Source: Oscillospiraceae bacterium
GTDB taxonomy: Bacteria > Bacillota > Clostridia > Oscillospirales > Ruminococcaceae
Reading direction: 5' to 3'
DNA: 64,000 nucleotides
Assembly: GCA_047972265.1 (NCBI GenBank)
Contig: JBKEAM010000046.1
Location: forward strand, 1,009 to 65,008
In this document: in pieces, positions 7,821-40,295 of the stretch
How the letters are laid out: each line of letters opens with the position of its first letter
How positions within the stretch are numbered: the stretch's first letter is position 1
The notes under the pieces: model-generated
Seen by the model: only the letters and a program-made list of their open reading frames with translations
Database searches by the model: none
Told to the model about the DNA's origin: nothing
Program-made: the position numbers and the translations under genes

Positions 7821-7830
7821 ACTGGGAAAA

Positions 7831-9946: not shown

Positions 9947-9979
9947 TTGCGGTTAAAAGTAAGATGAAGGGGCGAGATA

Positions 9980-10713
9980 ATGCGGCAGGTAACAAGCCCA
10001 GAGGGGCAGCAGAAAAAAAGAGAGTTAATCCTTTTGGTAGAGGATAACCCAGATATAATGCGTATTAACAGTTTTTTTCTGTCTAAGGCAAAAGGGTATA
10101 GAGTAGAGGAAGCCACCACACTAGAAGAAGCGGAGCGCATGGCCGAGGCACATGGGCCCGATTTGGTTGTGATGGATATATTAATGCCCGATGGCTCCGG
10201 CATGGATTTTTGTAAAAAACTGCGCACCACAAAAAATACCCCGGTGCTTTTTTAAGTGCCTTAAGCGAAAATAAGGATATTATTGAGGGGCTGCATGTGG
10301 GGGGAGATGACTTTATCTCTAAAACCTACGATTTAGACGTACTTTCGGCACGGATAGAAGCGCTGCTGCGCCGGGCAGGGATGGAAAAAACCAGCGCAAG
10401 GGGAGATATTTATAAATACAAAAATTTTACAGTAGATTATTTGTCCCGCAGGGCCTATGTAAATGATATGGATATTCTGCTTAAAAATAAAGAGTTTTCT
10501 TTAATGGAGGTAATGCTTAAAAACAAGGATGTACTCTACTCGGCAGAGCAACTGTACAGCCTTGTGTGGGGTATGCAGGCAGGCGAGGATGTGCGAACCA
10601 TAAAGGCGCATATTTCTCGTATACGCCACAAACTTAGCGATGCCTGCCCCCTGTATGTAGAGGCCGTGCGGGGCAGAGGCTACCGCATGACGGAAAGAGA
10701 AAGCAAAAAGTAA
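9980..10713 (+). pseudogene. OmpR-family response regulator interrupted by one frameshift in a T6 tract
   Basis: The receiver domain (ILLVEDNPD...VVMDILMPDGSG...TPVLF) stops at TAA 10253-10255. The next frame continues LSALSENKDIIEGLHVGGDDFISK and the winged-helix domain (RGRGYRM). The join needs T7 instead of the T6 at 10248-10253. Confidence 0.8.
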
Positions 10714-10781
10714 AAAGAGCGTAATATTTGTAATTAGGCATATGTTGGTAATATTTAAACAAAACCAGTGGATTTATCACC

Positions 10782-10810
10782 TTGTTGCCGTTTGGGAGGA
10801 AAGGTATAAT
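10782..10810 (+). promoter_or_regulatory. Candidate sigma-A promoter for the FGGY kinase gene
   Basis: TTGTTG, 17 nt, TATAAT. Confidence 0.4.
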
Positions 10811-10838
10811 AAAGAAAATGGGAAAATGAGGTGTTTTT

Positions 10839-23551: not shown

Positions 23552-23599
23552 TAAAAAATAATCCCTAGGGGCGCAGCATTTTAACGCTGTACCCCTAGG
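23552..23599 (-). terminator. Terminator at the end of the acid-sugar locus (after the VOC gene)
   Basis: CCCTAGGGG-CGCAGC...GCTG-TA-CCCCTAGGG stem with an internal mismatch. On the minus strand it is followed by ATTATTTTTT. Confidence 0.65.
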
Positions 23600-23618
23600 G
23601 TGTTTTTAAAGCTGTTAT

Positions 23619-23966
23619 TTACTTTTGCATAATGTGTATGGCAAAGCCGCCAAATTCGCCATCCAGGTATACATTTTTTATTTTGCCGTCTTCGGTATAT
23701 GCGGCGGTGTCCATGTTAAAAGAGAAGCCTTTCTCTTTTAATTCTTCTACCGCGGTGGTTAAATTGGGGGTGCGCATGGCAATGTGGCCATTTGCGCCCA
23801 AAAAGGGAGCCTTCATGCATTCAAAATAGGGGCCGCCAAACTCCGATTTTTGCCCATGGCGGGGTTCTAGGTTAAACATCATGCTTAAAAGCTGTGCAAG
23901 CTTTTCGGCTTCTTCGGCATTGGGGGTATTAATGCCAATGTGCTCCAGTTCAAATTTAGTATTCAT
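23619..23966 (-). CDS. VOC (glyoxalase/bleomycin-resistance fold) family protein, 115 aa
   Basis: LEHIGINTPN...GHIAMRT...GGFAIHIMQK. Clearly homologous to the C-terminal domain of the eda fusion at 37219-38181. Confidence 0.7.
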   Translation of the reverse strand: MNTKFELEHIGINTPNAEEAEKLAQLLSMMFNLEPRHGQKSEFGGPYFECMKAPFLGANGHIAMRTPNLTTAVEELKEKGFSFNMDTAAYTEDGKIKNVYLDGEFGGFAIHIMQK

Positions 23967-24033
23967 AGTAATCCTTTTCTTTTTACGTATAGAGGATTTT
24001 TGTATATGCAGTCTACCTTGCTGTGCTAAACCA

Positions 24034-25314
24034 CTACATGGGGAACATAAGCAGGGCGCCCGCTGTTAGGGCAAGCAAGCGGATAAAGTACATTGGTACA
24101 GTAAATTTCCAAAACTCAGTTAGTTTGTAGTTACCAATACCCATAATCATGGCGGGCATGCCATCGATGGGTAAAAAGTGGCCGTTCCAGCCAGAAACTA
24201 CAATGGCAGCGGCAGCAGCTGTTGGGTTTAGGCCAAGGCTCATGCAGGTAGAAATAGCCAAAGGGGCAAATACATACACGGTGCCAAGGGTAGAGCCGGT
24301 AAGGGTTGCCAAAACACTGGTAAGTACACAGAAGGCAAATACCAAAATAAAGGGGTTGATGTTATTGCCCAGTAAATTGGCTACACTTTCGCCTACCAAA
24401 GCGGTTAGGCCGGTACTGCCAAGTGCATCGGCAACACCAATAACACCGGCGGACATTAAAATAATGGGAGAGCTGATGCTGTTGCGGATTTCTTTAAGAT
24501 CCATAGCGCCAACAGCCAGCAACAGGGCAACAGCCAGGCCGGTAATGGCGTAGCCTGCATCACCAATGCTGCTTTGCAACAACATGCCAACAACGGCAAT
24601 TAAAAATGCGGCATATATGGTGTATTCTTTCCAGCGGGGCATTTCAACAACATTTTCGTCCGCGGCTTTTGCATCTACCTCAGGCTCTGCAATGGGATGG
24701 TTTGGCAGAGGTTTGTAAGCAATAAGGCACCAGATTAAGAACCCGGCAGAAAGAATAAAGGTCATGATAGAAAATTTAAATACAGAAATTTCGCCAACAA
24801 GGGCTCCGGCGCTTTGCAAAACGGCTACGGCAATACCGTACTGTAACGCTACGTTTACGGGGATTAAGGGATGGTTTGCTGCAAAGCCTGCGGGCATTAT
24901 AATTTTAGAGCCGGGCAGCTTTTCGTTGTGGGGAATGGTGGAGAGAAGCCCTAGAGTTAGTACGTAGTATGCGGTAGACCCAGTGCCGAACAGGCTGGTG
25001 CCCAGCATAACAACAAGAATAAGCAAAACATATGCTTTAAATCCGCCTTTGCTGGCCACTTTATTCATGGTTCTTTTAAAGGCAACAATAAAGCGGGTTT
25101 TTTGCAGGGCGGTCATAATAGCCATAAATGAAGCAAGCATAACAACGGTAGAGTTTGAGAAGCCTGCAAAAGCAGATTTGATATCAGCTATACCAAATAC
25201 TACCAGCAGCAAGCATGCGAGCAAGGGAGGCGCACCGAAGGGGAGTTTCTCTGTCATGATTAAAATAATCATAAGCACAGTGATTGCAAGAGCAATAATC
25301 ATTGAAACTGTCAT
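24034..25314 (-). CDS. Anion permease of the ion-transporter superfamily (SLC13/CitMHS/ArsB-like)
   Basis: 426 aa, about 11-12 TM helices, family-like N-terminus ...LPFGAPPLLACLLLVVFGI.... Confidence 0.6.
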   Translation of the reverse strand: MTVSMIIALAITVLMIILIMTEKLPFGAPPLLACLLLVVFGIADIKSAFAGFSNSTVVMLASFMAIMTALQKTRFIVAFKRTMNKVASKGGFKAYVLLILVVMLGTSLFGTGSTAYYVLTLGLLSTIPHNEKLPGSKIIMPAGFAANHPLIPVNVALQYGIAVAVLQSAGALVGEISVFKFSIMTFILSAGFLIWCLIAYKPLPNHPIAEPEVDAKAADENVVEMPRWKEYTIYAAFLIAVVGMLLQSSIGDAGYAITGLAVALLLAVGAMDLKEIRNSISSPIILMSAGVIGVADALGSTGLTALVGESVANLLGNNINPFILVFAFCVLTSVLATLTGSTLGTVYVFAPLAISTCMSLGLNPTAAAAAIVVSGWNGHFLPIDGMPAMIMGIGNYKLTEFWKFTVPMYFIRLLALTAGALLMFPM

Positions 25315-25543
25315 TTGTTGGCTTTCCTTTCTGCTATCAATTTTTTGTGGTTGGGCAATAACTAGCTAAAGATAAGCGTTTGGACAGGCGGCATACCCGT
25401 TACATACCAATAAGCAAGCAGCTTGGCGGCAGGCATATTTGCATACGGCCAAATAAGGGGGGGAGGCACGGGTTTACCAGGCTTTGGCAGCAGAAAGCCG
25501 CCGCAACATAAAGTAGAAATAGTACAGATTCCTCCGCTATTTT

Positions 25544-26620
25544 TTAAGCTTTGTTTTTGGCGTTTGCCATAACAATTGAATAATCAATTGCGTTTACAAG
25601 GCTAAGTTCACTGCTGGTACCCTTGCCAGCAAGGTCAAAGCCGGTGCCGTGGTCTACGCTGGTGCGTATAATGGGAAGCCCAAGTGTTACATTAACGCCC
25701 TCTACCGCTTTCCAGGCCTGCTTTTCGCGGTCGAACACAAAACCTACGGTTTTTAGCGGAATATGCCCCTGATCGTGGTACATGCACACCACAATATCGT
25801 ACATACCGCCCAAAGCCAAAGAAAATACACTGTCTGCCGGCAGGGGGCCAATGGCGTTAATGCCTTTTGCCTTTGCCTCTGCAATAGCGGGGTTTATTTC
25901 TTCAATTTCTTCGGTGCCAAACAAACCGTTTTCGCCGCAGTGCGGGTTTAAACCTGCCACAGCTACCCGGGGGGCGGCTATGCCCATCTCTTTGCAGGCT
26001 TTATCGGCAATCTCTATCACCTCCAGTACCCGCGCTTTCTTTACCCTGTCGCATGCTTGCCGTAAAGATACATGGGTAGAAACGTGTACCACACGCAAAT
26101 CGTGGTGGGCAAGCATCATGGTGTATTTTTTGGCACCGGTGTAGGTGGCATAAATTTCGGTGTGCCCGTCAAAGTGGGTGTGACCGTCGGACTTTTCGCC
26201 TTTATAGTATTCTAGGGCATTATTAAGAGACTCTTTGTTTAGTGCATTGGTGCAGGTGGCAACTACTTCTCCGGCCATTGCAAGCCTAATAACCTCGCGC
26301 ACGCACTGAAATGCGGCGTTGCCGCCCTCAACGCTAATTTTGCCAATTTCAAACCGAGAAATATCGGCAACAAGGGGAAGGTGCAGTACATCTATTGTGC
26401 CGGGAACAAACTGCGCATCGGCCACAGTATTGCAATGACGAATTTTAATTTCGGACCGCCCTACAAAGCGGGTGGCTTGTTCCATTATTGCGGCATCCCC
26501 CACAACAAGGGGGCGGCAGCGAGTGTACAAATTGGGGTTTGCCAATGCTTTTATAGTAATCTCGGGGCCATTGCCCGCGGGGTCACCCATTGTAATTGCA
26601 ACAATTGGTTTTTTATCCAT
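25544..26620 (-). CDS. PdxA-family NAD-dependent dehydrogenase (PdxA2-like 4-phospho-aldonate dehydrogenase, decarboxylating)
   Basis: ITMGDPAGNGPEI, GLNPHCGENG, HDQGHIPLK and VDHGTGFDLAGKG motifs. Confidence 0.85.
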   Translation of the reverse strand: MDKKPIVAITMGDPAGNGPEITIKALANPNLYTRCRPLVVGDAAIMEQATRFVGRSEIKIRHCNTVADAQFVPGTIDVLHLPLVADISRFEIGKISVEGGNAAFQCVREVIRLAMAGEVVATCTNALNKESLNNALEYYKGEKSDGHTHFDGHTEIYATYTGAKKYTMMLAHHDLRVVHVSTHVSLRQACDRVKKARVLEVIEIADKACKEMGIAAPRVAVAGLNPHCGENGLFGTEEIEEINPAIAEAKAKGINAIGPLPADSVFSLALGGMYDIVVCMYHDQGHIPLKTVGFVFDREKQAWKAVEGVNVTLGLPIIRTSVDHGTGFDLAGKGTSSELSLVNAIDYSIVMANAKNKA

Positions 26621-26635
26621 TGGGGATATCCTTTC

Positions 26636-27544
26636 TTACTGCATACCTTTGGCGGTATTTTCCTTTAAAACCTGCTGCAGCGCTTCAATTCCTTCGTCAC
26701 ACAGGTAGTTAAAAGGACGGCGGCAATCGCCTACGGGGTAGCCAAGTAAAGAAACAGCTTTTTTAACAATGGTGTTGGGGTTGCCATATTTAAATACAGC
26801 ACGGAAAGAAGCAATAGAATCCTGTGCAATTTTTGCTTCTTCCAATTTACCGGCTTTAAATAGCTCGTAAATAGAAGCCAAGACATGGGGATATACGTTG
26901 GCGCAACCGGCAATACCACCGGCACCGCCCTCTTGCAAGCAGGGCAAAATCAACGAGTCGTTTCCGGACAAAACGCGAAAATCTTTGTCTAGCTCTTTGG
27001 TTTGGGTTATGTAGGCCAACAGGTTGTCCCAATCTCCGCTAGAGTCTTTGGCACCCATAATAACGTCTACATCTTTGGCAAGTTTTGCAACGGTTTCGGG
27101 CAATAGTTTGTTGCCGGTACGTGCGGGAATATTGTAAAGCACAATGGGGGTATCTACGTGTTTTGCAACTTCTACATAATGGTCGTACAGCTCTTTTTGA
27201 GAGGCCACGGCAAAACTGGGGGTGATGATAGACAATACATCGGCACCTAAATCTTGTGCTTTTTTGCTCATGCGAATGGTGTCGGCAGTAGAGATGCAGC
27301 CGGTACCGGCGTATACGGGTACGCGCCCTTTTACCTGGTCTATGGTGGCTTCCAACACTTCAATTTTTTCGTTTTCGTTTAAAATATAGCCCTCGCCATT
27401 GGTGCCAAAGGGGAAAAGTCCATGTACGCCACCCGCCAATAGGCGTTCTATTTGGTTGCACAGTTCATCCAAATTAACCGATTCGTCAGCGTTCATGGGG
27501 GTTAAAATGGGAGGGATAATGCCCTTAAGTTCAACGTTTTTCAT
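26636..27544 (-). CDS. DapA/NanA-family class I (Schiff-base) lyase
   Basis: GVHGLFPFGTNGEG, YAGTG, LYNIPARTG, and the Schiff-base Lys context MGAKDSSGD. Confidence 0.8.
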   Translation of the reverse strand: MKNVELKGIIPPILTPMNADESVNLDELCNQIERLLAGGVHGLFPFGTNGEGYILNENEKIEVLEATIDQVKGRVPVYAGTGCISTADTIRMSKKAQDLGADVLSIITPSFAVASQKELYDHYVEVAKHVDTPIVLYNIPARTGNKLLPETVAKLAKDVDVIMGAKDSSGDWDNLLAYITQTKELDKDFRVLSGNDSLILPCLQEGGAGGIAGCANVYPHVLASIYELFKAGKLEEAKIAQDSIASFRAVFKYGNPNTIVKKAVSLLGYPVGDCRRPFNYLCDEGIEALQQVLKENTAKGMQ

Positions 27545-27570
27545 TCTGATGTTCTCCTTCTTGTAATACT

Positions 27571-28734
27571 TTATAAAATTTCTAGGTACAAATTTTTTGC
27601 ATCTTCGGCGGTGACAGGGCGGGGATTATTTACCAGCAAGCGCTGTACCTGCATGCCGGCTTCTACAAGGCCGTCCAAATCCTCACGGGGCACACCAAAC
27701 TCTTTAAGGCTGGTAGGAATGTTTAGGTGGCGCACAATATGCTCTAGCTGCTCAATTACCCAATCGGCCTTTTCTTGGTTGGTGTGTTTGTCTTTAATAT
27801 CATCATGGCAGCATCTGTTGTATACCTGCGCCAAACGCTCGCAGCAAAAAGGTGCGTTAAACCGCATTACAGGTGCCAGCAAAATGGCGTTAGATACGCC
27901 GTGCGCAATGTGGTATTTGCCACCCAGAGGATAGCTTAAGGCGTGTACGGCGGTGGTGCCCGACGAGGCAATGGCAAACCCCGCATAAAGCGCGGCAATT
28001 TGCATATTGTTTTTGGCATCCATGGCATCGGCATCATCGCAGGCGGGGATAATGTTGTTTAAAATAAGGTCAAGTGCTTCCAGCGCAAAAGTATCAGAAA
28101 AAGGGTTGGCTTTGTTGCTTGTATAGCACTCAATTGCATGGCACAATGCATCAACACCGGTGGCGGCCGCAATGGGGCGGGGAAGGCTTTTAATCATGCG
28201 AGCATCTAAAATAACATAGTCTGCAATCATGTGTTCGTTTACAATGCCTACCTTCAGTTCTTTTTCGGGCACGGCAACAATGGCGTTGGGGGTTACCTCG
28301 GCGCCGGTGCCTGCCGTGGTGGGAATCATAATGGCAGGCACACATTTTTTGGCAAGGCCGGGGGTATCTAGCAATTCTTTTACGCCATATTCGTCGGTTA
28401 CCAGCACACTGGCCAGCTTTGCGGCATCCATAACGCTGCCGCCGCCGCATGCAATAATCATATCTGCGCCACTTGCCTTAAACTGGTCTACAATTTTTTG
28501 AACATCGGTATAAGAGGGCTCGGCAGGGATTTCATCTAAAATATAATAGCTTGCGTCCGCATTTTTAATGGCGTTTTCGGATAGGGCAAGCAGGCCGCAG
28601 GCCCTAATGCCCTTATCGGTAAAAATTGCCACGTTTTTGCTGTTACTGCTTTTTAAAATGGTGGTAATGTTGTCTATTGCATTTTCGCCCCCGTATACAG
28701 CGTGAGGCATTTTTAAATTGTAAGCAGTTTGCAT
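27571..28734 (-). CDS. Iron-containing (group III) alcohol dehydrogenase
   Basis: ACGGGSVMDAAK, PTTAGTGAE, and His-rich metal-site segments HAIECY / HALSYPLGGKYHIAHG. Confidence 0.85.
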   Translation of the reverse strand: MQTAYNLKMPHAVYGGENAIDNITTILKSSNSKNVAIFTDKGIRACGLLALSENAIKNADASYYILDEIPAEPSYTDVQKIVDQFKASGADMIIACGGGSVMDAAKLASVLVTDEYGVKELLDTPGLAKKCVPAIMIPTTAGTGAEVTPNAIVAVPEKELKVGIVNEHMIADYVILDARMIKSLPRPIAAATGVDALCHAIECYTSNKANPFSDTFALEALDLILNNIIPACDDADAMDAKNNMQIAALYAGFAIASSGTTAVHALSYPLGGKYHIAHGVSNAILLAPVMRFNAPFCCERLAQVYNRCCHDDIKDKHTNQEKADWVIEQLEHIVRHLNIPTSLKEFGVPREDLDGLVEAGMQVQRLLVNNPRPVTAEDAKNLYLEIL

Positions 28735-28784
28735 TTTGTATCACTCCTATTGATAGAACCAGATAAAATTGCTTGTTTAAAAAA

Positions 28785-29948
28785 TTACTTTGTGCCCTCG
28801 CCAGAGGTGGGGTTGTATACGCCCACCTGCTCGCGCTTTTTGCCAATAACGTCATCTTCGGTAAAGCTTACATATTTTATGCATTTGCGGGTATAAGCGG
28901 CATAGGTAAGGTGCAGCCTGCCATCGGCGCTTTGTATTAAATAGGGGTATTCGTACTGTTTATTGTTGGTTTTGTTTTCTTCGCCAACATATCCTTCGCC
29001 GCGCTCCATCCAGCGGATGAGAGGAAAAGTTAAGCCGCCATCCTCCGAAAGTGCCACGGCAACCGGGCACCGTAAACCGGGCCATGCAGCCTTACCGGGC
29101 ATTGGGTTGGGGGTGCAGGTAGGGTTGTGCGCTACGGCAACGCGGCCGCTGTTGGTGCGTATGGCGCTGATGGAGGAGTTGTTGTTGGGCAGTGGGGTGG
29201 GTTTTGGCACAGACCATGTTTCGCCCCAATCCAAAGATTCGCTCCGGTACACATTGTCGGCTTCGCGGCTGCGCATAAATGCGGTTAGGTGGCCATTGTC
29301 CAGTTCTACCACTGTGGGATGAACCCGCCCGCGGCTGCCCGGCATTTCTACCATGCGCCAGGTTTTGCCCTGGTCATCGGATATTTGAAAAACACTGGGA
29401 TCTCCCGAAAGGCCCTCTTCCGAATCGGTGCATAGCCAGTTGCCAAAAATCCAGCGGCCATTTTTTAACACCTGTATGGGCTGGCGGCAAAAACTGCCCT
29501 CACGAGAAAACACGGTTTCGTAATCACCCCAAGTTAGGCCGCTGTCAAAGCTTTTTTGGCAGCGGATTTGAGAGGTAAACTGCATGTTGTCTTTGCCGGC
29601 CACACGGTCTAACTGGGCGGTGTACATACACCAAACGGCACCGTCGGGCCCGTAAAATAAAGAGGGGTTTTGTTCGCTGCGCTCGGGGTCTCCCGAAACG
29701 CTCACGGGTTCTGTCCAGTGGCCTGCCCCTTTGGGCAGGCGGGCGCAAACAATGTGCACGTCGGCGTCGCCCTCGTAGGTGCCGGCAAACCAACAGCAAA
29801 GCATGTCGCCGTTGGGTAGCTCTAACATAGCGGGAGAGTGGCAGGTGGCAAACGGGCCGGGGGGAATCATTGATTCTACAGTGCCCATGTCTTCGTTAAA
29901 AAAAATCTGACCATTTAAGTCTAGGCCCGGGAGTGTAGGATAGTTCAT
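28785..29948 (-). CDS. BNR/Asp-box beta-propeller protein (sialidase superfamily, BNR_2-like), cytoplasmic, no FRIP motif
   Basis: Asp-boxes SFDSGLTW, SDDQGKTW, SLDWGETW and SEDGGLTF. The N-terminus MNYPTLPGLDLNGQIFF is not a signal peptide. No RIP tripeptide anywhere. Confidence 0.75.
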   Translation of the reverse strand: MNYPTLPGLDLNGQIFFNEDMGTVESMIPPGPFATCHSPAMLELPNGDMLCCWFAGTYEGDADVHIVCARLPKGAGHWTEPVSVSGDPERSEQNPSLFYGPDGAVWCMYTAQLDRVAGKDNMQFTSQIRCQKSFDSGLTWGDYETVFSREGSFCRQPIQVLKNGRWIFGNWLCTDSEEGLSGDPSVFQISDDQGKTWRMVEMPGSRGRVHPTVVELDNGHLTAFMRSREADNVYRSESLDWGETWSVPKPTPLPNNNSSISAIRTNSGRVAVAHNPTCTPNPMPGKAAWPGLRCPVAVALSEDGGLTFPLIRWMERGEGYVGEENKTNNKQYEYPYLIQSADGRLHLTYAAYTRKCIKYVSFTEDDVIGKKREQVGVYNPTSGEGTK

Positions 29949-29966
29949 GTAAGATATACCTCCTGT

Positions 29967-31232
29967 TTATAATAGGTTGGCTGTATGGGAAAGGTTCTTT
30001 GCCAAAGATACAAATAAATCATGGTCTCCAAATCCGCCAGATTTTGAAATAATATGATAGGTTTTGCTGTTGTAAACAAATTTTGTTAAAACAACACCAG
30101 TGGCCATTTCTCCAAGCGGGGTTAGCTCTGTCACGCCCACTGCCTGCATTAATGCCAGCAGGGTATCGCCGCCGGTGCACAAAAGGGTGGCAAGCAGGCC
30201 GCTATCCAGCATTTTTTTTATCAGTGCGGCCAAATTAACCGAAATTCGCACCCGTAAATCTTCTAATGTAAGCCCGTTTTGGTCTGCATATATATCGGTG
30301 TCGTTTTGCCCCTCAGGGTCATTTACATCCAAAATAAATCTTTTTTCGGCAGCGGCTTGCGCAATCCATTGCTTTACGCAGGCATTTGCATCTTCGCGGT
30401 TTATCCAGCTTGCTTCTAACTTTTGGATTGGTGTTAGGTGCACCCGCCTAAAGCCATGTTCTTGCGCGGTTTTCATCTGTTGCAGGCTAACGGGGTTTAC
30501 GCTGCCGCAGGCCACAAACAGTGCTTGCTCCAGCGCCGGCAGCTGCGGAGGCTCTCCCTGCAAGTGGAGCATATCGGCTAAAACCGCAGCAAAGCCCGAG
30601 CATCCCGCGCTAAATTTTAATTGTTTCAGGCTTAGGGCGTTGCCTATGCGCAACAAATCTTCGTCAGTTTCTGCATCAAACAGTTGGATACCGGGAGTGG
30701 AAATTTTGTTTTTTTCTTTTTTGGGGTGCACTACCACCGGCACAGAGGTTTGCCGCCCCAAAATTTCTGCCACGTCAGAATCTAAAACGGGCTCAAAGGG
30801 GTCCTGTCCAAATACGCTTTGGGCAACAGGGATGCCGTCTATATAGTGAACGCCGCCTTTGGTAATGCGATTAAGCTTAGGAAGTGCCGGAATAAAGGGG
30901 AGGCTATCTACACCGGCCGCGTCCATCAGGGCGGCCAGTTCGCTGCCTGCGTTGCCCCGCAGGGCAGAATCGGTTTTGTTGTAAATGTAAGAAATACCGG
31001 ATTGTAAGGCTTTGTGGGCGGTGTTGTACACTATGCTGTAAGCCTGTTGCGGAGAAAGATGCCGCGTTTTTGTAACCATTACCAAAACTTCTACCGTTTT
31101 ATCAATCAAATCAAAATCGTAGTTAGGATCGGTAACTACGGTTGTAGAAGCCCCTTTGGATACAAATTGCACGCCGGTATCAAAAGCCCCTGTAAAATCA
31201 TCCGCAAGAACTAAAAGCTTTACCACAGACAC
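29967..31232 (-). CDS. Four-carbon acid-sugar kinase family protein (DUF1537)
   Basis: N-terminus LLVLADDFTGAFDTGVQF; 421 aa; C-terminal LLCTGGDT...SKSGGFG nucleotide-binding domain pattern. Confidence 0.8.
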   Translation of the reverse strand: MSVVKLLVLADDFTGAFDTGVQFVSKGASTTVVTDPNYDFDLIDKTVEVLVMVTKTRHLSPQQAYSIVYNTAHKALQSGISYIYNKTDSALRGNAGSELAALMDAAGVDSLPFIPALPKLNRITKGGVHYIDGIPVAQSVFGQDPFEPVLDSDVAEILGRQTSVPVVVHPKKEKNKISTPGIQLFDAETDEDLLRIGNALSLKQLKFSAGCSGFAAVLADMLHLQGEPPQLPALEQALFVACGSVNPVSLQQMKTAQEHGFRRVHLTPIQKLEASWINREDANACVKQWIAQAAAEKRFILDVNDPEGQNDTDIYADQNGLTLEDLRVRISVNLAALIKKMLDSGLLATLLCTGGDTLLALMQAVGVTELTPLGEMATGVVLTKFVYNSKTYHIISKSGGFGDHDLFVSLAKNLSHTANLL

Positions 31233-31289
31233 ACCCCTGAGTGTTTAATTTTAAAACAATTTGAAAAAGTTTAAAGATAAAATCGCTTT

Positions 31290-31310
31290 ATTATAGAGGT
31301 TTTGCAAACC
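31290..31310 (-). promoter_or_regulatory. Candidate -10 (TATAAT, minus strand) with adjacent 13-bp inverted repeat GGTTTTGCAAACC upstream of the acid-sugar operon
   Basis: The reverse complement of 31290-31295 is TATAAT. The repeat at 31298-31310 lies where the -35/-10 spacer would be. Confidence 0.3.
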
Positions 31311-31410
31311 TTTTTAACTTACTTCGTGTTTATTCTACAGGTTAAACTGCCTGTCTACAATCATTTATAAGTATTACAAGCGTACATATTTGAAACGATA
31401 GAAAAAAATA

Positions 31411-31439
31411 TTGATTATTTTTTGTGCAATCGGTATAAT
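31411..31439 (+). promoter_or_regulatory. Sigma-A promoter of the PrpR-like regulator gene
   Basis: TTGATT (31411-31416), 17 nt, TATAAT (31434-31439); AGAGG RBS and ATG at 31473 follow. Confidence 0.6.
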
Positions 31440-31472
31440 GTGTTCATAATTGAAACGCAATTAGAGGTGTTT

Positions 31473-33257
31473 ATGAAAAAGAGCGTTCGAGTTTTAGGCA
31501 TTGCCCCCTATGAGGGGATGAGAATACAAATGTTAAACCTAGCAGAAGAATATCCCCAGATGGATTTGACGGTATATGTGGGGGATATGGAGCAAGGCTT
31601 GGCAATTGTACAAAACAATTTTCACGGAGATTACGACGTGGTAATTTCCCGTGGTGCTACCGCCCAAATGTTGCGGCAGCATTTGGTAATTCCGGTGGTG
31701 GAAATTGACATTTCTATGTACGATATTTTGTGTGCAATAAAACTGGCAAACGGTTTAAAAGAAAAAACAGCCATGATATTTTTTGCCGATATACGTAACC
31801 AGGTAATGACTTTGTGCGATTTACTGGAGTGTGATACAGACATTTATACGCTGGACACGGTGGAGGATTTGGAGCCGACCCTGCACAGCATTCAGGATAA
31901 AGAGTACCAGGGGATTTTGTGTGATGTAATAGTAAATACTGCGGCCCAGCGCCTTGGCATCAACTCTTACCTTATTACCTCCGGTACAGACAGTATACGC
32001 AATGCATTTAACAGGGCACTTTTATTGTACGACAGCCAAAAGTACCTGCGAGATGAAAACCTGTTTTTTCAAGATTTGCTGCGGGGGCAAATTGGGCAAA
32101 CCCTGGTGTTTGACAGCCAGGGCAATCTGTTTTTGTCTACCTTGGATGACCCGGAACCGACCCTGCTGGAAATGCTGCGCCAGGAACTGCGCCAATCTCC
32201 GCAGGAAAAGGAGCGGAGGATTAACCGTTCTTTAAAAGGTATGCTTTATTCCATCCGGGTAAAAAAAATTATCAATGGCACCCTGCATTACACAGCTTTC
32301 TTTTTTGATGCCAGAAAGCTCCCTGTATCGCCCAGCCAAGTGGGGATTCATTTTTTAAGCAAGGCAGAAGCCGAGACAGCTTATTATAACAGTGTTTTTA
32401 GTTTTACAGGCAACTTGTATGGTTCTCAGCAAGAGTTTGAGCAGGTAAACCAAAGCACAGCCCCAGTTATACTTGCGGGTGAGGACGGAACAGGAAAAGC
32501 ATCAATTGTGAATATGTTGTATATTCGCGGGCCGCTGCAAAATAACCCCTTAGTGTCCATAGATTGCAGTTTAATGAACAGCCGCAGCTGGGCTTTTTTA
32601 ATGGAACACCACAACTCGCCTTTGGCAGACAAAGACAATTTGTTGTTTTTTAATAATGTAGATGTACTGCCAAAAGAGAGGCAGTATCAGTTAATTGCTG
32701 TGCTTACAGAGATGGATGTTTGCAGCCGCAATAGGGTAATGTTTTCTTGCGTATGCGAAAGCGGAGAGTATATTTCTAAGGCAGGGGCGCTTTTTCAGGA
32801 TAAACTTTCCTGTATTTCTTTATTTGTGCCACCTCTGCGGCAAATTTCTGAAAAAATCCCCACTTTAATGAACCTGTGTTTAAGCCACATGAACGTAAAT
32901 ATGCCGCGGCAAATTTTAGGGGCAGACCCCGAAGCTTTGTCTTTGCTGCAAAACTATAGGTGGCCACACAACTACACCCAGTTTAGGCGGGTTATTAATG
33001 AGCTGGCCATAACCAGCAGCGGCCAAATTATAACAGCCGAAAATGTGCGCCAGGTATTGCGTAAAGAAAGGCATGTAGGGGCCTTTTCATTTCAAAAAGA
33101 AAACGCAACCTCTCCGTTGGATTTAAACCGAACTTTGGCGGAAATTAGCCAGGATATTGCCCTTAGAGTAATTGACGAAACCAGCGGCAACCACACATCC
33201 GCCGCCAAACGCCTTGGCATTAGCCGCACAACCTTGTGGCGGCTAATGCAAAAGTAA
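31473..33257 (+). CDS. PrpR_N-domain / degenerate AAA+ / Fis-HTH transcriptional regulator (sigma-54 activator-like but probably sigma-54 independent)
   Basis: The N-terminus VRVLGIAPYEGM...DVVISRGATAQMLR...IPVVEIDISMYDIL matches the PrpR N-domain. Walker A GEDGTGKA. HNSPLADKDN stands in place of GAFTGA and LLFFNNV in place of the LFLDE Walker B. C-terminal HTH is AAKRLGISRTTLWRLMQK. Confidence 0.75.
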   Translation: MKKSVRVLGIAPYEGMRIQMLNLAEEYPQMDLTVYVGDMEQGLAIVQNNFHGDYDVVISRGATAQMLRQHLVIPVVEIDISMYDILCAIKLANGLKEKTAMIFFADIRNQVMTLCDLLECDTDIYTLDTVEDLEPTLHSIQDKEYQGILCDVIVNTAAQRLGINSYLITSGTDSIRNAFNRALLLYDSQKYLRDENLFFQDLLRGQIGQTLVFDSQGNLFLSTLDDPEPTLLEMLRQELRQSPQEKERRINRSLKGMLYSIRVKKIINGTLHYTAFFFDARKLPVSPSQVGIHFLSKAEAETAYYNSVFSFTGNLYGSQQEFEQVNQSTAPVILAGEDGTGKASIVNMLYIRGPLQNNPLVSIDCSLMNSRSWAFLMEHHNSPLADKDNLLFFNNVDVLPKERQYQLIAVLTEMDVCSRNRVMFSCVCESGEYISKAGALFQDKLSCISLFVPPLRQISEKIPTLMNLCLSHMNVNMPRQILGADPEALSLLQNYRWPHNYTQFRRVINELAITSSGQIITAENVRQVLRKERHVGAFSFQKENATSPLDLNRTLAEISQDIALRVIDETSGNHTSAAKRLGISRTTLWRLMQK

Positions 33258-35067: not shown

Positions 35068-35823
35068 TTAAAATTCTTTTACAATGTTTTTAGACGCCTT
35101 TAGCAACATACCCACTTCGCTGTCGCAGCTAAATACGCTCATGCCCTGGCTGCGGCAATCCTGCAAAAATGGGATATTGCCAGAGATAATGCCGCTTGGC
35201 TTGCCAGCCTTGGCGGCACCGGCAATAACGGCGGTAATGTTCTTTTTCATTAAATCGGTGCCAAAATTGCCGGGGGTTTTGCAGTCTGCTGCCAAATCGT
35301 TGGGGCCAATCATAATGGCATCCACGCCCTCTACGGCAGCAATTTCGTCAATATTGGCAACACCCTCGTTGGTTTCTATCTGGGGCAAAATTACTGTATG
35401 TTGGTTGGCAAAAGCCATGTATTCCTCTAGGGGTGGCGGTGCATAGTTGGTGTGGATGCGCTGTGTAGAAATACCGCGTTGGCCAAGAGGCGCATACTTT
35501 GCATATTTTACAACGGTTTCAATATCTTCTTTTGTGCTTACCATAGGTACCAAAAGGCCGTCTGCGCCCATATCCAAATATTTGGTAATTACTTCGCGCT
35601 TTATTTCGGGTATGCGAACAACAACCGGAAAATTAGCGCCTTTTGCCACGCCTATAATTGCGGCTACCTGTGGGTAATCAAAATAACCGTGCTCGCAATC
35701 TACAATTAAAAAAGAAAAACCACCGGCAGAAAGTACGCGTGCTACATTAGGGGTAGCAAGCTCGCTTAACATGGTACCCAATACAAACTGCTTATTTAAA
35801 ATACGCTCTTTTAACAGGTTCAT
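35068..35823 (-). CDS. HpcH/HpaI-family class II (metal-dependent) 2-keto-3-deoxy-acid aldolase
   Basis: FLIVDCEHG, VVRIP, YLDMGADGLLVPMV, PQIETNEGV, IMIGPNDL. ATG at 35823 after GGAGGAG. Confidence 0.8.
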   Translation of the reverse strand: MNLLKERILNKQFVLGTMLSELATPNVARVLSAGGFSFLIVDCEHGYFDYPQVAAIIGVAKGANFPVVVRIPEIKREVITKYLDMGADGLLVPMVSTKEDIETVVKYAKYAPLGQRGISTQRIHTNYAPPPLEEYMAFANQHTVILPQIETNEGVANIDEIAAVEGVDAIMIGPNDLAADCKTPGNFGTDLMKKNITAVIAGAAKAGKPSGIISGNIPFLQDCRSQGMSVFSCDSEVGMLLKASKNIVKEF

Positions 35824-35828
35824 AATAA

Positions 35829-37211
35829 TTACTGCTCCTCCTGCATCCACTGCAATGTGTTTTTAGGGTTTTGAGAAAGGGAAGAGATACGCCCGGTTGC
35901 AAGTAAAGAGAGACGGTACATGCCGGCCACGGCTTCATCTGGCATGGCGGATTTTGAGTAGGGCAGGCCGGTGTGATGGCTTACGGTTTCCAGCAAGGCT
36001 TCGTTTTTCCAGCTTACACCGCCCGAAAAGGTAAGCCCGTCCGGCAGTTTGCCGCCACATATGGGGGGCAGGTTTTGGGCGTAAATTTCTGCCATATCGG
36101 TATAGCTGGCTGTAAGCAGTGCGTTTAGGGTAAAATTGCCCGGCTTAATGCCACTTATGCCGCCGCCATCCAGTTTAGAGGCCGTGGGCCAAAAAAGGGT
36201 GTCCACGTTTATATCCGATGGGGCAACCTCCCACTGCTGCTGCAAAGCGCTCCATACATCAGCGGTAGATAGCGTTTGGCCGCATAAAACATTGGCACAG
36301 TGGATTAAAAAATCGGTAATTACCGCAAGGTTACGCCCGCCCGGCATATTAGAGATGGTGTTGATATAGGTGTTTTGAAAATAAGGACGAATTTCGTACT
36401 CGCCGGGAGAAAAAGCATCGGTATTGTAAGATACCTGACAGGCAGTGGCAATATTAATTACCGCATTGCCGGGGGCGGCCATTGCACCCAAAATACTTAC
36501 CTGCTGGTCTCCATAATCGGGCAAAAGCTTTACAGTGAAACCGTTTGTACTGTAGCTGTCGCAGTACTCAAAGTCGCTTTGGGCAAGTTTTGGCAGGTGT
36601 ATGCCGGTAAGGCCTGCTTTAACAAGGATATCTTGGTTCCAGCAGTGGTTTTTAACATCCACAAGGCCCAAGGGGGCGGCATTGGTAATGTGGCAGATGT
36701 TTTGCCCGCCCAAGCGGCTGATGATGTATGAGCCAAGGGTAAACAGCTCACCGTTTTGCAAAATAGAAGAATCGCTGTTTAAAAGTGCATATAAGTTGCA
36801 TAGTCCAAGGCTGGGTTTTAGGTCTACCCCGCAGGGGCGCATATCCTCTGGGGTTAAAAGCAGACGCAACTTTTGCAAATAAGTTTGCTGCTGCCCCGGC
36901 ATAAGGTCGGCACAGCGGCTGTCCTGCCAAGAAACATACACGTCCTCGTGCCCGGGGGTAGAATACACAAAACCGTGCATTTGGGTAGAAAAAAGCACCA
37001 TCTCTATAGGGTAGTGTGCGGCGGCTTCATCAATTAGGCTGCGCACGGTATCTACAATATCACCGGCAGAAATTTCAAAGATAAGGGGATTGGGGCTATC
37101 TTTACGGGGGAAAGACGGAAAAGAACGTCGGAACACGCACTGCGCTGTATCTAAACAAAAAACAGCTGCTTTTATAAAGCTGGAGCCAATATCAATGCCC
37201 AATGTATACAT
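35829..37211 (-). CDS. FGGY-like (ASKHA) carbohydrate kinase, divergent
   Basis: MYTLGIDIGSSFIKAAVF N-terminus; C-terminal GGVSWKNEALLETVSHHTGLP...AVAGMYRLS. ATG at 37211 after AGGAG; the ORF-track start at 37400 runs into the eda gene. Confidence 0.7.
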   Translation of the reverse strand: MYTLGIDIGSSFIKAAVFCLDTAQCVFRRSFPSFPRKDSPNPLIFEISAGDIVDTVRSLIDEAAAHYPIEMVLFSTQMHGFVYSTPGHEDVYVSWQDSRCADLMPGQQQTYLQKLRLLLTPEDMRPCGVDLKPSLGLCNLYALLNSDSSILQNGELFTLGSYIISRLGGQNICHITNAAPLGLVDVKNHCWNQDILVKAGLTGIHLPKLAQSDFEYCDSYSTNGFTVKLLPDYGDQQVSILGAMAAPGNAVINIATACQVSYNTDAFSPGEYEIRPYFQNTYINTISNMPGGRNLAVITDFLIHCANVLCGQTLSTADVWSALQQQWEVAPSDINVDTLFWPTASKLDGGGISGIKPGNFTLNALLTASYTDMAEIYAQNLPPICGGKLPDGLTFSGGVSWKNEALLETVSHHTGLPYSKSAMPDEAVAGMYRLSLLATGRISSLSQNPKNTLQWMQEEQ

Positions 37212-37218
37212 GCTGCTC

Positions 37219-38181
37219 CTACTTCCTGCGCAAATGAAGTGCAAACCCAGCCACTTCATCTTTAAAATATACGGTAAGCAGGCGGCCTTTGTCGTCACGC
37301 ACAAAGGTATCGGGATTAAACGTAACACCGTTGCGCTGGTAGTAGGCCACGGCGCGGTCGATGTCTGCGGTTTGGATTGCAATGTGCCCCTTTGCGCCAA
37401 GGTAACTGCCCTTTATCACTTCAAACATGCTGCCTGCAAAATAAGCGGTGGGAAATTCGGTTACCTGCGTTCCAAACAGGGTGGCCAGTGTATTGGCAGT
37501 TTGCAGGCCGTCGGCCTGGTCTTGGGTATTAATGCCCACGTGCACCAAAGAAAAGTTTAGTATTTTAAGCATGACCTGCTGGCAAAGCAGGGCAATATCC
37601 TCCCAGCGTTTTTCTTTTATCAAGTTATCGGGGGTTACAAAGCTGCCGCCCACGGCTGCCACGTTGGGCAGGGTAAGGTAATCGGCCATATTTTCGGTGT
37701 TTACACCGCCGGTGGGCATAAACTGCACCCCGCCATACGGCCCGGCCAATGCTTTAAGGGTCTTAATTCCGCCATATGCTTCGGCCGGAAAAAACTTTAC
37801 AGTATCCAGCCCAAAAGACAGGGCTTGTTCAATATCGGCGGGAGATACACAGCCCGGCAGCACATCAATGTTGTTTTGCACACAGTAGGCAACCACTTCG
37901 GCATTAAAGCCGGGGGTTACAATAAATTTCGCACCCGCCTCAACGGCCAACTGCGCATTTTTTACATTGTGTACGGTACCGGCCCCCAAAATAATTTGAG
38001 GCACATTTTGCGCAATCTCTTTTATAATATCCAGCGCGGCATCTGTTCTAAATGTAACCTCGGCCACGGGGATGCCCCCTTTTACCAGCGCCTTTGCCAA
38101 AGGTACTGCGTCCTGCACGTCTTCCAGCACAATTAGGGGTACTACACCAATTTCAAATATTTGTTTTGTAAGTTCACTCAT
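37219..38181 (-). CDS. eda: KDPG/KHG aldolase (Eda) fused to a C-terminal VOC-fold domain
   Basis: Eda part: VVPLIV...GGIPVAEVTFRT...GAGTV...KFFPAE...PTGGV. Residues from about 205 to the end (HVGINTQ...GHIAIQT...FALHLRRK) align with the stand-alone VOC protein at 23619-23966. Confidence 0.8.
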   Translation of the reverse strand: MSELTKQIFEIGVVPLIVLEDVQDAVPLAKALVKGGIPVAEVTFRTDAALDIIKEIAQNVPQIILGAGTVHNVKNAQLAVEAGAKFIVTPGFNAEVVAYCVQNNIDVLPGCVSPADIEQALSFGLDTVKFFPAEAYGGIKTLKALAGPYGGVQFMPTGGVNTENMADYLTLPNVAAVGGSFVTPDNLIKEKRWEDIALLCQQVMLKILNFSLVHVGINTQDQADGLQTANTLATLFGTQVTEFPTAYFAGSMFEVIKGSYLGAKGHIAIQTADIDRAVAYYQRNGVTFNPDTFVRDDKGRLLTVYFKDEVAGFALHLRRK

Positions 38182-38251
38182 TTATTTTGCCTTCCCGCAG
38201 TACTGCTGCCTGTATTTTAACAATATAAGGGGCGATTGTTGAAAACAAAAA

Positions 38252-39199
38252 CTATAAAGCCTGCACGCCCATAAAGCCGGCTAATTTTTCCCTGCTGGGC
38301 AACCCGTCGTTATCGCCACGGCTCATTACCTGTATGGCGCCTACGGCGTTGCCGCGTTTTACCGCCTCTTGTAAAGAAAGGCCCTCCATCAAAGCACTAA
38401 TGGTGCCGGCTGCAAATCCGTCTCCGGCGCCTACGGTATCAATTACCTTTTCTACCACAAATCCGGGCACGGCGTAGCGCTGCTGTGCGGTGGCAACAAA
38501 GGCGCCCTTGCTGCCGGTTTTGGTAACAACGGCTTTTGCCCCAAGAGAAAGATAAAAATCACTGATTATTTCGGGATCGCTGCTGCCCATCAAAATTTCC
38601 CCTTCGTTTTCTCCCGGAAAAACAATGTCCGCCTTGGCGGCCAATTGATTTATGGTTTGTATCATAGTTTCTTGGTCTTCCCAAAGCTGCGGGCGCAGGT
38701 TGGGATCAAAGGTGATAAAAAGGCCGCTTTTGCGCGCGGCTTCCATTAAATCAAAAACCATTTGGCGGGTGGTAAGGTTTAAAGCGGGTAAAATGCCCGT
38801 AACATGCAGGTGAGAATATCCGCTAAAATCCAATTTTTGGATATCCTGCGTGTTTAATGTAGAGGCAGCAGAGCCGCGGCGAAAATAAAAAATTTCGGGG
38901 TCTCCCTCGCTTACGCGGCTTTTAAGCATAAATCCGGTAGAGTTTGAATCGGAATAAAGAACAAATTCGCTGCCAATTTGGTTATCTTTTAAAAGATGAA
39001 CAATGTGTTTGCCAAAAGGGTCGTTGCCCAGCTTTGTAATATAGGTAACTTTATGTTCCAACCTTGCCATGCCCACGGCTACATTAAACTCTGCGCCGGC
39101 AACAGCAAAAGAATATTCTCCAACAGAATCCAGTGGGCCTTCTTGTTTTGCAATAAAAAGCCCCATTGGTTCTCCAATCAACATCACACCGGATGCCAT
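38252..39199 (-). CDS. kdgK: PfkB-family sugar kinase, 2-dehydro-3-deoxygluconokinase-like
   Basis: VMLIGEPMGLF...GAEFNVAVGMARLG-like N-terminus; C-terminal DTVGAGDGFAAG. Start trimmed to 39199, downstream of the lacI-family stop. Confidence 0.8.
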   Translation of the reverse strand: MASGVMLIGEPMGLFIAKQEGPLDSVGEYSFAVAGAEFNVAVGMARLEHKVTYITKLGNDPFGKHIVHLLKDNQIGSEFVLYSDSNSTGFMLKSRVSEGDPEIFYFRRGSAASTLNTQDIQKLDFSGYSHLHVTGILPALNLTTRQMVFDLMEAARKSGLFITFDPNLRPQLWEDQETMIQTINQLAAKADIVFPGENEGEILMGSSDPEIISDFYLSLGAKAVVTKTGSKGAFVATAQQRYAVPGFVVEKVIDTVGAGDGFAAGTISALMEGLSLQEAVKRGNAVGAIQVMSRGDNDGLPSREKLAGFMGVQAL

Positions 39200-39239
39200 G
39201 ATAAAACACGCCCTTTCAAAATATAGATGCCGTTTTGCT

Positions 39240-40295
39240 TTATTTAAAATCCGAAAGCTTTGTGCTGGTGCGCACATGAAGAGGGGCAGGCACGCTTACG
39301 TGCACTTTTTTACTGCCCGGGTTTTGAATGCGGTTGAGCAGAGCCTTTACGGTTAGCTTGCCTAACTGGTCTATAGAGGGGGTGAGGGTGCTGATGCCTA
39401 CGTTCATCAACTGGGCCCAGCCCAGCTCAGACGCCCAGCCCCATTCATCATAACCGCAAAGGCCAATTTGATTTGGCATATGCAGGCCAAGCGAGCGGAT
39501 GGCCTGTGCCACACGCATCAAAGTAACGCCGTTGGAGGTAATAATTGCGGGAGGAGCGGTATCGTTTGCCGATTGCTTCATCAATTGCTTTACAGCGGCG
39601 CAAACACTGTTTTGGTTATCCTCAATATCGTATACAAAGTCGGCAGCGTTTTGCACACCAAGCTCGGTCAGGGTTTCGATGTGGGCGCGGCGGCGGTATA
39701 AACGAGGAGATATTTGCTCGTGAGGGGTTTGGGTTATATAGGCAATGTTGCCAAAGCCCTCTTGATGCAGATGCAAAACAGCCTCACGTATAGGGGATTT
39801 GTTTTCTATAAAAGCATAGTCAAACTTATAGTCGGTTACATCACGGTCCAGCAGCACCACAGGCAGGCCGCCGTTGGCAATATTAATTAAAAAAGGATTT
39901 TGCCGTTGTGTGGTGTTGATAATAAGGCCGTCAATTTTTTGCCCTAAAAGAGATTGAATAATGCTTTGTTCTTTTTTAGGGCTTTTATCGCTGTTTGCAA
40001 TAATAATGTTGTAGCCGGTATTGTTCATAGCGTCGCCAACACTTTTTATAACAGCCGAGCTGAAAGGGCTTTCGATATCGGCAACAACCAGGCCAATCAA
40101 CATGCTTTTGTGACTTTTAAGGCTGCGGGCTATGTTATTTGGTTGGTAATTGGCGTTTTCTATAACGGCCTTAATGCGCAAGCGCGTGTCCTCAGACATA
40201 AATTCGTACTTTTCGTTTAAATAGCGGGAAACAGTGGTTTTAGAAACGCCAGCCATATGCGCAATGTCGGCAATGGTAAGGTTTTTTTTGGGCAT
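39240..40295 (-). CDS. LacI-family transcriptional regulator
   Basis: LTIADIAHMAGVSKTTVSRYLN HTH plus a periplasmic-binding-fold effector domain. Confidence 0.85.
   Translation of the reverse strand: MPKKNLTIADIAHMAGVSKTTVSRYLNEKYEFMSEDTRLRIKAVIENANYQPNNIARSLKSHKSMLIGLVVADIESPFSSAVIKSVGDAMNNTGYNIIIANSDKSPKKEQSIIQSLLGQKIDGLIINTTQRQNPFLINIANGGLPVVLLDRDVTDYKFDYAFIENKSPIREAVLHLHQEGFGNIAYITQTPHEQISPRLYRRRAHIETLTELGVQNAADFVYDIEDNQNSVCAAVKQLMKQSANDTAPPAIITSNGVTLMRVAQAIRSLGLHMPNQIGLCGYDEWGWASELGWAQLMNVGISTLTPSIDQLGKLTVKALLNRIQNPGSKKVHVSVPAPLHVRTSTKLSDFK

Follow-up and report, generated by a model that had tools for sequence, protein, structure and literature searches.

Kinases of the DUF1537 family (DtnK, DenK) act together with PdxA2 in the degradation of D-threonate and D-erythronate, according to the work of Zhang et al. 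(2016, PNAS) as it is cited in PMC9997740 and PMC10971088, and D-threonate kinase, coupled with 4-phospho-D-threonate dehydrogenase, leads from D-threonate to dihydroxyacetone phosphate (DHAP; PMC10079672; PMC10971088). In the nan catabolism of sialic acid, a cyclic ulosonic acid is opened and cut into pyruvate and an aldehyde (PMC8141875). Here, we describe a seven-gene operon from an Oscillospiraceae bacterium that appears to combine a nan-like front end with a DtnK/PdxA2 back end and may thus be seen as a variant of known acid-sugar catabolism. It lies in a stretch of 64,000 nucleotides (assembly GCA_047972265.1, contig JBKEAM010000046.1, positions 1,009 to 65,008 of the forward strand), the whole of which is called the window below. 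Most likely, the operon imports and degrades a cyclic 2-keto-3-deoxy sugar acid with a second carboxylate.

The operon consists of seven co-directional open reading frames on the minus strand at 23619-31232, exactly where a preliminary description of this DNA had placed them. From the kinase to the 115-amino-acid (aa) protein they are:

29967..31232, minus strand: acid-sugar kinase of the DUF1537 family, predicted D-threonate or tetronate 4-kinase

28785..29948, minus strand: cytoplasmic six-bladed BNR/sialidase-fold propeller of 387 aa with a remodelled active site

27571..28734, minus strand: group III Fe-dependent alcohol dehydrogenase (Fe-ADH), predicted C4 aldehyde-acid reductase

26636..27544, minus strand: DHDPS/NanA-family class I (Schiff-base) pyruvate lyase

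25544..26620, minus strand: PdxA2-type NAD-dependent oxidative decarboxylase, predicted to turn 4-phospho-D-threonate into DHAP and CO2

24034..25314, minus strand: anion permease (importer) of the CitMHS / ion-transporter superfamily

23619..23966, minus strand: VOC-fold protein of 115 aa that is predicted to assist the lyase as a metal-dependent ring opener

The intergenic gaps in this order are 18, 50, 26, 15, 229 and 67 nt, and Pfam matches with E values from 1e-20 to 1e-98 were obtained for SBD_N+NBD_C, BNR_2, Fe-ADH, DHDPS, PdxA and CitMHS. The gaps, the single terminator and the divergent regulator given in the preliminary description were all recovered, and the motifs it had quoted (ADDFTGAFD, GGGSVMDAAK, GAKDSSG, GDPAGNGPEI and HGTGFDLAGKG) are all present in the translations. 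The kinase may start at a second GTG, at 31226.

Relatives of the propeller gene were sought in one genome per species, in about 185,000 species-level genomes, 266 of which carried such relatives; the counts given in the following refer to the best-matching 80 of these 266 genome loci, with gene presence scored by tblastn. All five core genes (propeller, DUF1537 kinase, Fe-ADH, lyase and PdxA2) were found in 67 of the 80 loci, and most of the remaining 13 stop at a contig boundary. The PdxA2 gene is present in 68 loci, the VOC-like gene in 54 and the CitMHS permease in 48, and a TAXI-TRAP transporter was found in 17. Propeller homologues are 76-93% identical in many Clostridia; the closest of the 80 loci is that of Faecalispora jeddahensis (92%), and the set further includes Lacrimispora, Clostridium merdae, Proteiniclasticum, Oscillibacter, Faecousia, Faecalibacterium prausnitzii ATCC 27768, Enterocloster, Caloramator, Anaerobium and Herbinix, the hosts being gut, rumen and biogas anaerobes. 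Kinase, propeller, ADH, lyase, PdxA and a PrpR_N regulator occur together in two unrelated lineages, with CitMHS as the transporter in one and TAXI-TRAP in the other. A Bacilli version of the module, with regulator, kinase, ADH, lyase, PdxA, DUF386 protein, propeller (55% identical) and CitMHS, is found in Enterococcus raffinosus as well, on a megaplasmid of 1.19 Mb (locus L093, NZ_CP072889.1, 1087897-1108721). Clustering of about 3000 open reading frames from 82 loci revealed no other recurrent flanking family, only the module itself and antisense artefacts.

The preliminary description had treated the propeller, lyase and ADH genes as one locus with the kinase/PdxA pair and had named missing synteny in related genomes as the sign of two unrelated neighbouring operons. 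The former view was borne out, as the combination has been kept through order changes, transporter swaps and dozens of species, and this retention through rearrangements and transporter replacement shows one functional module. We therefore hold with high confidence that the genes form a single co-functional module rather than two adjacent operons. The idea of two unrelated operons is largely refuted by the interleaved genes, which remain linked across at least five gene orders in the 67 intact loci, and we consider it very remote, also in the form that the genes are biosynthetic (DapA for lysine, PdxA for vitamin B6), to which we return with the lyase.

At the C4 end of the proposed route, the kinase matches PF07005 (E 1e-44) and PF17042 (E 6e-20), both over their full length, and its top matches in the Protein Data Bank (PDB) are 4xfr and 4xfm (E 1e-24); it is predicted to phosphorylate the terminal 4-OH of a tetronate. 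The PdxA-family protein (PF04166, E 3e-98) matches PdxA2 of Salmonella (2hi1, 9e-83) and D-threonate 4-phosphate dehydrogenase (6e85, 7e-79), while the match to E. coli PdxA (1ps6, 1e-50) is much weaker. Kinase and PdxA2 genes share one operon, and both belong to the core set kept in the 67 loci. The DtnK/PdxA2 pathway thus finds its counterpart in the same two families, adjacent in the sense that one operon holds both here, with DHAP and CO2 as the predicted end products. In contrast to that pathway, which starts from free tetronate and needs two enzymes, the module adds five conserved protein types, namely propeller, lyase, Fe-ADH, VOC-like protein and transporters, which suggests that the tetronate is made in the cell from a larger acid. 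The Fe-ADH carries PF00465 and PF25137, and the permease matches PF03600 (E 4.5e-24), with a weak DASS match. We count the transporter families, CitMHS and TAXI-TRAP, and the PrpR_N sensor domain of the regulator in favour of a dicarboxylate substrate.

A dicarboxylate would also fit another scheme; an aldolase followed by a semialdehyde reductase and a kinase is the established logic for glucarate. The GarL/GarR/GarK system works in the same way as the route proposed here, splitting a keto-deoxy diacid into pyruvate and an aldehyde-acid that is reduced and then phosphorylated, but the protein families all differ and the fragment here would be C4 and not C3, so that the additional oxidative decarboxylation by PdxA2 would be needed to reach a triose phosphate. 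Were the substrate instead a C6 aldarate-derived 5-keto-4-deoxy-glucarate or -galactarate, processed by a non-orthologous version of this system, the lyase would yield pyruvate and tartronate semialdehyde, the ADH glycerate and the kinase phosphoglycerate. The transporters and the KdgD-type models among the matches of the lyase agree with this scheme; however, it leaves no role for PdxA2, which is nevertheless present in 68 of the 80 loci, it requires a glycerate kinase from DUF1537 kinases, which are not known as such and whose top model here is a D-threonate kinase, it lacks a dehydratase in the module, and it leaves the sialidase fold and YhcH unexplained. We regard it as improbable and favour the tetronate route.

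The lyase (PF00701, E 1e-70) is closest to genuine DapA structures. In its alignment to 3a5f and 1o5k, the Schiff-base lysine K161 as well as Y133, T44 and R138 are kept, while Thr45 is replaced by Asn and Tyr106/Tyr107 by Ser/Phe; GAKDSSG and LYNIPARTG align with catalytic positions of the DHDPS family. Tyr107 of DapA is a member of the catalytic triad (Tyr133-Thr44-Tyr107), and Arg138 binds the carboxylate of aspartate semialdehyde, itself a C4 aldehyde-acid. An identity as true DapA was rejected on the active-site residues Thr45 and Tyr107. The simplest reading is that the lyase would cleave a 4-hydroxy-2-oxo C7 diacid into pyruvate and a C4 aldehyde-acid. Its second-best NCBIfam model, TIGR02313 ('HpaI-NOT-DapA'), likewise describes a DHDPS-family, DapA-like aldolase that splits a C7 4-hydroxy-2-keto diacid into pyruvate and a C4 aldehyde-acid, although the score of 194 stays far below the cut-off of 397 and the substrate of that enzyme, 2,4-dihydroxyhept-2-ene-1,7-dioate, lacks the C5/C6 hydroxyls and belongs to aromatic catabolism.

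The same residues bear on the biosynthetic interpretation, for which it speaks that TIGR00674 (dapA) on 26636-27544 and TIGR00557 (pdxA) on 25544-26620 both lie just above their cut-offs, with scores of 218 against 206 and 323 against 290, respectively. Replacement of Tyr107 and Thr45, the PdxA2-like nature of the PdxA protein and the dedicated transporter and regulator stand against it. With such scores, annotation pipelines will name these catabolic genes biosynthetic PdxA and DapA.

The propeller (PF13088, E 9e-57) has four Asp boxes of the form S-x-D-x-G-x-T-W/F, and its AlphaFold2 (AF2) model (pLDDT 80.8) gave GH33 sialidases as the top Foldseek matches (1eur, 4fj6 and 7qxo; TM 0.68-0.70). 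Its active-site signature comprises H37, E59, H210, R226, R293 and Y334. R226 and R293 align with Arg2 and Arg3 of the sialidase triad in hidden Markov model (HMM) alignments, and, as we read the motifs, the arginine of the RIP motif is represented by His37 (within CHSPAM, invariant). The glutamate that activates the nucleophile in sialidases (TEAQVVE) aligns with His210, which is Gln in distant relatives, and the acid/base loop of GH33 is absent. Y334 is invariant and may correspond to the nucleophile Tyr of sialidases; the HMM alignments end before it. With the first catalytic Arg and the catalytic Glu both replaced by His, the propeller is not a canonical sialidase, and, as no signal peptide was found in its N-terminus (MNYPTLPGLDLNGQ), these changes point to a cytoplasmic, remodelled sialidase-fold enzyme. 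The fold, the retained Arg2 and Arg3 and an invariant Tyr are counted for a ulosonic acid as the substrate.

A comparison with BT1020 (GH143/GH142, 5mqr) suggests itself, an enzyme of the rhamnogalacturonan-II (RG-II) polysaccharide utilization locus of Bacteroides thetaiotaomicron that removes side chain D (Araf-Dha). The profile of our BNR subfamily detects the N-terminal propeller of BT1020 over 118 residues with an E value of 1.3e-10, compared with 3e-20 for GH33. Unlike BT1020, which has 1108 aa, two domains and a place in a polysaccharide utilization locus, the module propeller is a cytoplasmic single-domain protein of 387 aa closer to GH33. An assignment to GH33 was rejected for it since the catalytic residues are not conserved, and an assignment to GH143 is doubtful, the similarity being weaker than that to GH33. 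The nearest homologue outside the module (P0121, 54% identical, metagenome contigs L089-L091) carries the same signature of H37, E59, H210, R226, R293 and Y334. This signature, together with its neighbourhood of a GH2 gene and an epimerase gene, suggests that the His-type BNR_2 subfamily may consist of cytoplasmic glycosidases. A distant homologue, P0131, adjoins a sulfatase, a GFO and an enolase-superfamily gene, and neither of the two contexts gave a clear substrate.

For the 115-aa protein, no significant Pfam match was obtained (Glyoxalase_4 with E 0.0015 did not reach the gathering score), but the label of a VOC protein, already used in the preliminary description, holds at the level of the fold, since its AF2 model (pLDDT 80.5) matched 3oa4, 6qh4, 1jc5 and 5hcw, which are methylmalonyl-CoA epimerases and other VOC proteins, with a Foldseek probability of 1.0. 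Its candidate metal ligands H9, E49, H61 and E104/H111 are invariant. It aligns over its full length with the C-terminal domain of an Eda aldolase encoded elsewhere in the window, at 35% identity (E 3e-24), and the putative metal ligands are common to the free protein and the fused domain. This 320-aa KDPG/KHG aldolase (37219-38181, minus strand) matches PF01081 on residues 10-197, with the VOC-like domain on residues 210-320, and lies in a minus-strand cluster at 35068-40295 with the order LacI / PfkB (KdgK-like) / Eda-VOC / FGGY / HpcH-aldolase. The fusion links the VOC-like domain to class I pyruvate aldolases. Three homologues of the free protein (P0272, P0356 and P0386), from JGI and one NCBI metagenome-assembled genome (MAG), are labelled '2-dehydro-3-deoxyphosphogluconate aldolase / 4-hydroxy-2-oxoglutarate aldolase', probably a carry-over from the annotation of Eda fusions.

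In two variants of the module a DUF386 gene is present and the VOC-like gene is absent. One is that of E. raffinosus, where the DUF386 gene (11860-12318 of L093) stands between PdxA and the propeller and encodes a protein above the TIGR00022 cut-off, with N-acetylneuraminate anomerase as its second match; the other is that of an Oscillospiraceae MAG (L026, CANQIO010000010.1), where the gene follows the permease, the usual position of the VOC-like gene. The latter locus (7157-11990) also has two alpha/beta-hydrolase esterase-like genes between PdxA and permease, with matches to BD-FAE and a weak, PHB-esterase-like one, which hints at an esterifiable substrate. The ring of sialic acid is opened by YhcH/NanQ, a Zn protein, which passes open N-acetylneuraminic acid (Neu5Ac) on to NanA (PMC8141875). 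Together, the DUF386 variants and the Eda-VOC fusion suggest a cyclic 2-ulosonic acid as the substrate and, for the VOC-like protein, a role as a non-orthologous openase that serves class I pyruvate aldolases.

In these respects the module follows nan catabolism, which likewise involves a sialidase-fold protein and a DHDPS/NanA-family lyase and whose YhcH has its DUF386 homologue in the two variants. Since sialidase-family proteins, NanA-family lyases and YhcH homologues are the products of hallmark nan genes, and many of the hosts are gut commensals, one might see here a variant operon for a sialic or other nonulosonic acid (Neu5Ac, KDN, Leg or Pse). We find this quite improbable: the module has no NanK, NanE, NagA or NagB equivalents, neither a tetronate kinase nor PdxA2 would serve the hexosamine or hexose product, nanA models give the lyase a score of 129, well under their cut-off of 382, and the propeller is without the first Arg and the catalytic Glu. 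Unlike in nan, the aldehyde half would pass to the ADH, the tetronate kinase and PdxA2. The propeller differs as well, being cytoplasmic and having His in those two positions, and a VOC-fold protein usually takes the place of YhcH.

Taken together, the predicted route would begin with uptake of the anion by the CitMHS permease, or by TAXI-TRAP in other species. In what is the least certain step, the cytoplasmic propeller would act on a small conjugate or a dehydrated form to free or convert the ulosonic acid; the VOC-fold protein, or the YhcH/DUF386 openase in the two variants, would supply the open-chain keto form, which the lyase would cut between C3 and C4 into pyruvate and a C4 aldehyde-acid. 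Reduction of the aldehyde by the Fe-ADH, at the expense of NAD(P)H, would yield a tetronate, the DUF1537 kinase would phosphorylate its 4-OH, and PdxA2 would release DHAP and CO2 by oxidative decarboxylation, regenerating the reduced cofactor. As the ADH would use the reducing equivalent that PdxA2 regenerates, the route should be redox-neutral, which suits fermenters. A chain from a ulosonic acid over pyruvate and a C4 unit to DHAP had been put forward as speculative in the preliminary description; it gains from the retained Arg138, the PdxA2-like dehydrogenase and the presence of YhcH-type proteins in two variants, even though we still infer it, and we see the chances of this route, with tetronate as its intermediate, as evenly balanced.

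As for the substrate, the leading candidate is 3-deoxy-D-lyxo-hept-2-ulosaric acid (Dha), found in side chain D of RG-II and in prasinophyte walls. It is a cyclising 2-keto-3-deoxy acid with a second carboxylate that would suit recognition by a sialidase fold and would leave a C4 acid after loss of pyruvate. By Fischer-projection rules and nomenclature, its C4-C7 fragment would be D-threuronate, the reduction of which would give D-threonate. D-threonate is the substrate of the characterised DtnK/PdxA2 pair. Circumstantially, the detection of the BT1020 propeller by our BNR profile, the two carbohydrate-esterase-like genes of the L026 variant and a host range of gut, rumen and biogas anaerobes also point to Dha. 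Heat or acid suffices to release the Dha ketoside, and RG-II degraders leave rare sugars to cross-feeders (bioRxiv 10.64898/2026.03.13.711244). We offer Dha as a tentative candidate and consider it less likely than not to be the substrate.

A monocarboxylic ulosonic acid such as 3-deoxy-D-manno-octulosonic acid (Kdo) from lipopolysaccharide or RG-II would satisfy part of this evidence too, as any 2-ulosonic acid would agree with the sialidase fold, the NanA-like lyase and the YhcH-like proteins, and Kdo, which RG-II degraders release, far exceeds Dha in abundance in the gut. It would be cleaved to pyruvate and D-arabinose, the latter being oxidised to a pentonate for the kinase and giving then, by a PdxA-like decarboxylation resembling that of 6-phosphogluconate dehydrogenase, a tetrulose phosphate. 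OiaK is indeed among the matches of the kinase, and in apiose pathways PdxA-family and DUF1537 enzymes act on non-C4 acids. However, the oxidation of aldoses to acids is not a reaction of Fe-ADHs, which interconvert alcohols and aldehydes, the module contains no lactonase or tetrulose-phosphate isomerase, the PdxA protein is specifically PdxA2-like, Arg138 of the lyase points to an acidic aldehyde, and the transporters are of the di-/tricarboxylate type, so that we consider Kdo unlikely.

A number of points weigh against the tetronate route and against Dha as its substrate. Every step was inferred from family membership and context, and the D-threonate stereochemistry of the C4 fragment was derived from nomenclature. 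The kinase scored 181 bits with its top NCBIfam model, D-threonate kinase (NF047819), below the cut-off of 450 (220 bits for the E. raffinosus orthologue), and its 116 bits with the 3-oxo-tetronate kinase model are under the cut-off as well; the PdxA2 equivalog NF002891 gave 321 bits against a cut-off of 583, and the nearest models of the Fe-ADH, lactaldehyde reductase (268 bits) and 4-hydroxybutyrate dehydrogenase (222 bits), are all under theirs. With His in place of the first triad Arg and the catalytic Glu, ketosidase activity of the propeller is not assured; it is also more similar to GH33 than to the GH143 domain of BT1020, and its homologue P0121 stands in a neutral-sugar context, beside a beta-mannosidase-like GH2 and an aldose 1-epimerase. 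In eight loci of the TAXI-TRAP type (L049 and L058 architectures), VOC-like and DUF386 genes are both absent, which would make a ring-opening role accessory at best. The frequency of the module contrasts with the very minor place of Dha among dietary sugars, and the clustering of the 82 loci revealed no recurrent RG-II or pectin glycosidase or arabinose genes beside it.

Regarding its control, the operon is accompanied by the following elements:

23553..23600, minus strand: intrinsic terminator closing the operon, a hairpin followed by a U-run

31233..31472: divergent promoter region between regulator and kinase

31473..33257, plus strand: divergent regulator with PrpR_N, a degenerate AAA+ domain and a Fis-type helix-turn-helix (HTH)

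The terminator hairpin has a predicted energy of -29.8 kcal/mol (z = -5.38). In the promoter region, sigma-70-like sites were found by consensus match only, TTAAAA-16-TATAAT on the minus strand (31317-31290) and TTGATT-17-TATAAT on the plus strand (31411-31439). The 229-nt gap between PdxA and permease gave no Rfam match, and the corresponding spacer in relatives varies from 35 to 590 nt and is alignable only near the ribosome-binding site; a riboswitch or conserved RNA in this gap was ruled out on both grounds.

The mechanical open reading frame of the regulator, 31422-33257, starts at a TTG at 31422, while the true start is probably the ATG at 31473, which has GAGGTG upstream and gives 594 aa as in the homologues. 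Its Pfam domains are PF06506 (PrpR_N), PF14532, PF25601 and PF02954 (HTH_8), and a homologous regulator adjoins the module in 69 of the 80 loci, most commonly divergent upstream of the kinase. No GAFTGA loop was found in its translation, the Walker B position reads LFFNNV instead of LFLDEI with loss of the acidic pair, the Sigma54_activat profile matches only over positions 12-62 of 168, and no -24/-12 element (TGGC-N8-TGCW) was found in the intergenic region between regulator and operon. Lacking the loop, the acidic pair and such a promoter, it is not a working sigma-54 activator, and control by a sigma-54 enhancer-binding protein was ruled out. We see in it a sigma-54-independent member of the enhancer-binding-protein lineage with a dead AAA+ core.

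The G+C content is 47-51% over the operon (24001-30000) compared with 41-44% in the immediate flanks, and the identity to homologues across lineages varies widely among the seven proteins, both of which would be compatible with lateral spread of the module, although values from 37 to 52% occur over the whole window. A plasmid-borne mobile island was rejected, as only two plasmid records, from Subdoligranulum and the E. raffinosus megaplasmid, contain part or all of the module, and within the window it is surrounded by housekeeping genes, among them SecA, ArgH, Tmk and fumarase.

Our literature searches found no published description of Dha catabolism or of this gene cluster, in agreement with the preliminary description, which had not recognised the gene combination as a characterised pathway. 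It is conceivable, though doubtful at present, that cross-feeding butyrate producers such as Faecalibacterium use the module to degrade Dha, which would make it the first catabolic pathway for this sugar and would involve two new enzyme functions; these would be a VOC-fold openase and a cytoplasmic, His-substituted enzyme of sialidase fold that acts on a conjugate of Dha or on dehydrated Dha. Among the hosts are health-associated anaerobes that abound in the gut (Faecalibacterium prausnitzii, Oscillibacter, Enterocloster and Lacrimispora) as well as Clostridia of rumen and biogas communities, and present-day pipelines will misname some of the module's genes as DapA, PdxA, sialidase or even KDPG aldolase. 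If our interpretation is true, it would extend the two-step tetronate pathway to a full route for a larger ulosonic or ulosaric acid, supply a missing catabolic step for a rare sugar of the most complex plant glycan and provide a testable natural origin of the D-threonate used by the DtnK/PdxA2 pair. It would also give a function to a VOC-fold family without an earlier assignment and to the large His-type BNR_2 subfamily, the VOC-fold openase then being a non-orthologous replacement of YhcH/NanQ that is also found fused to Eda.

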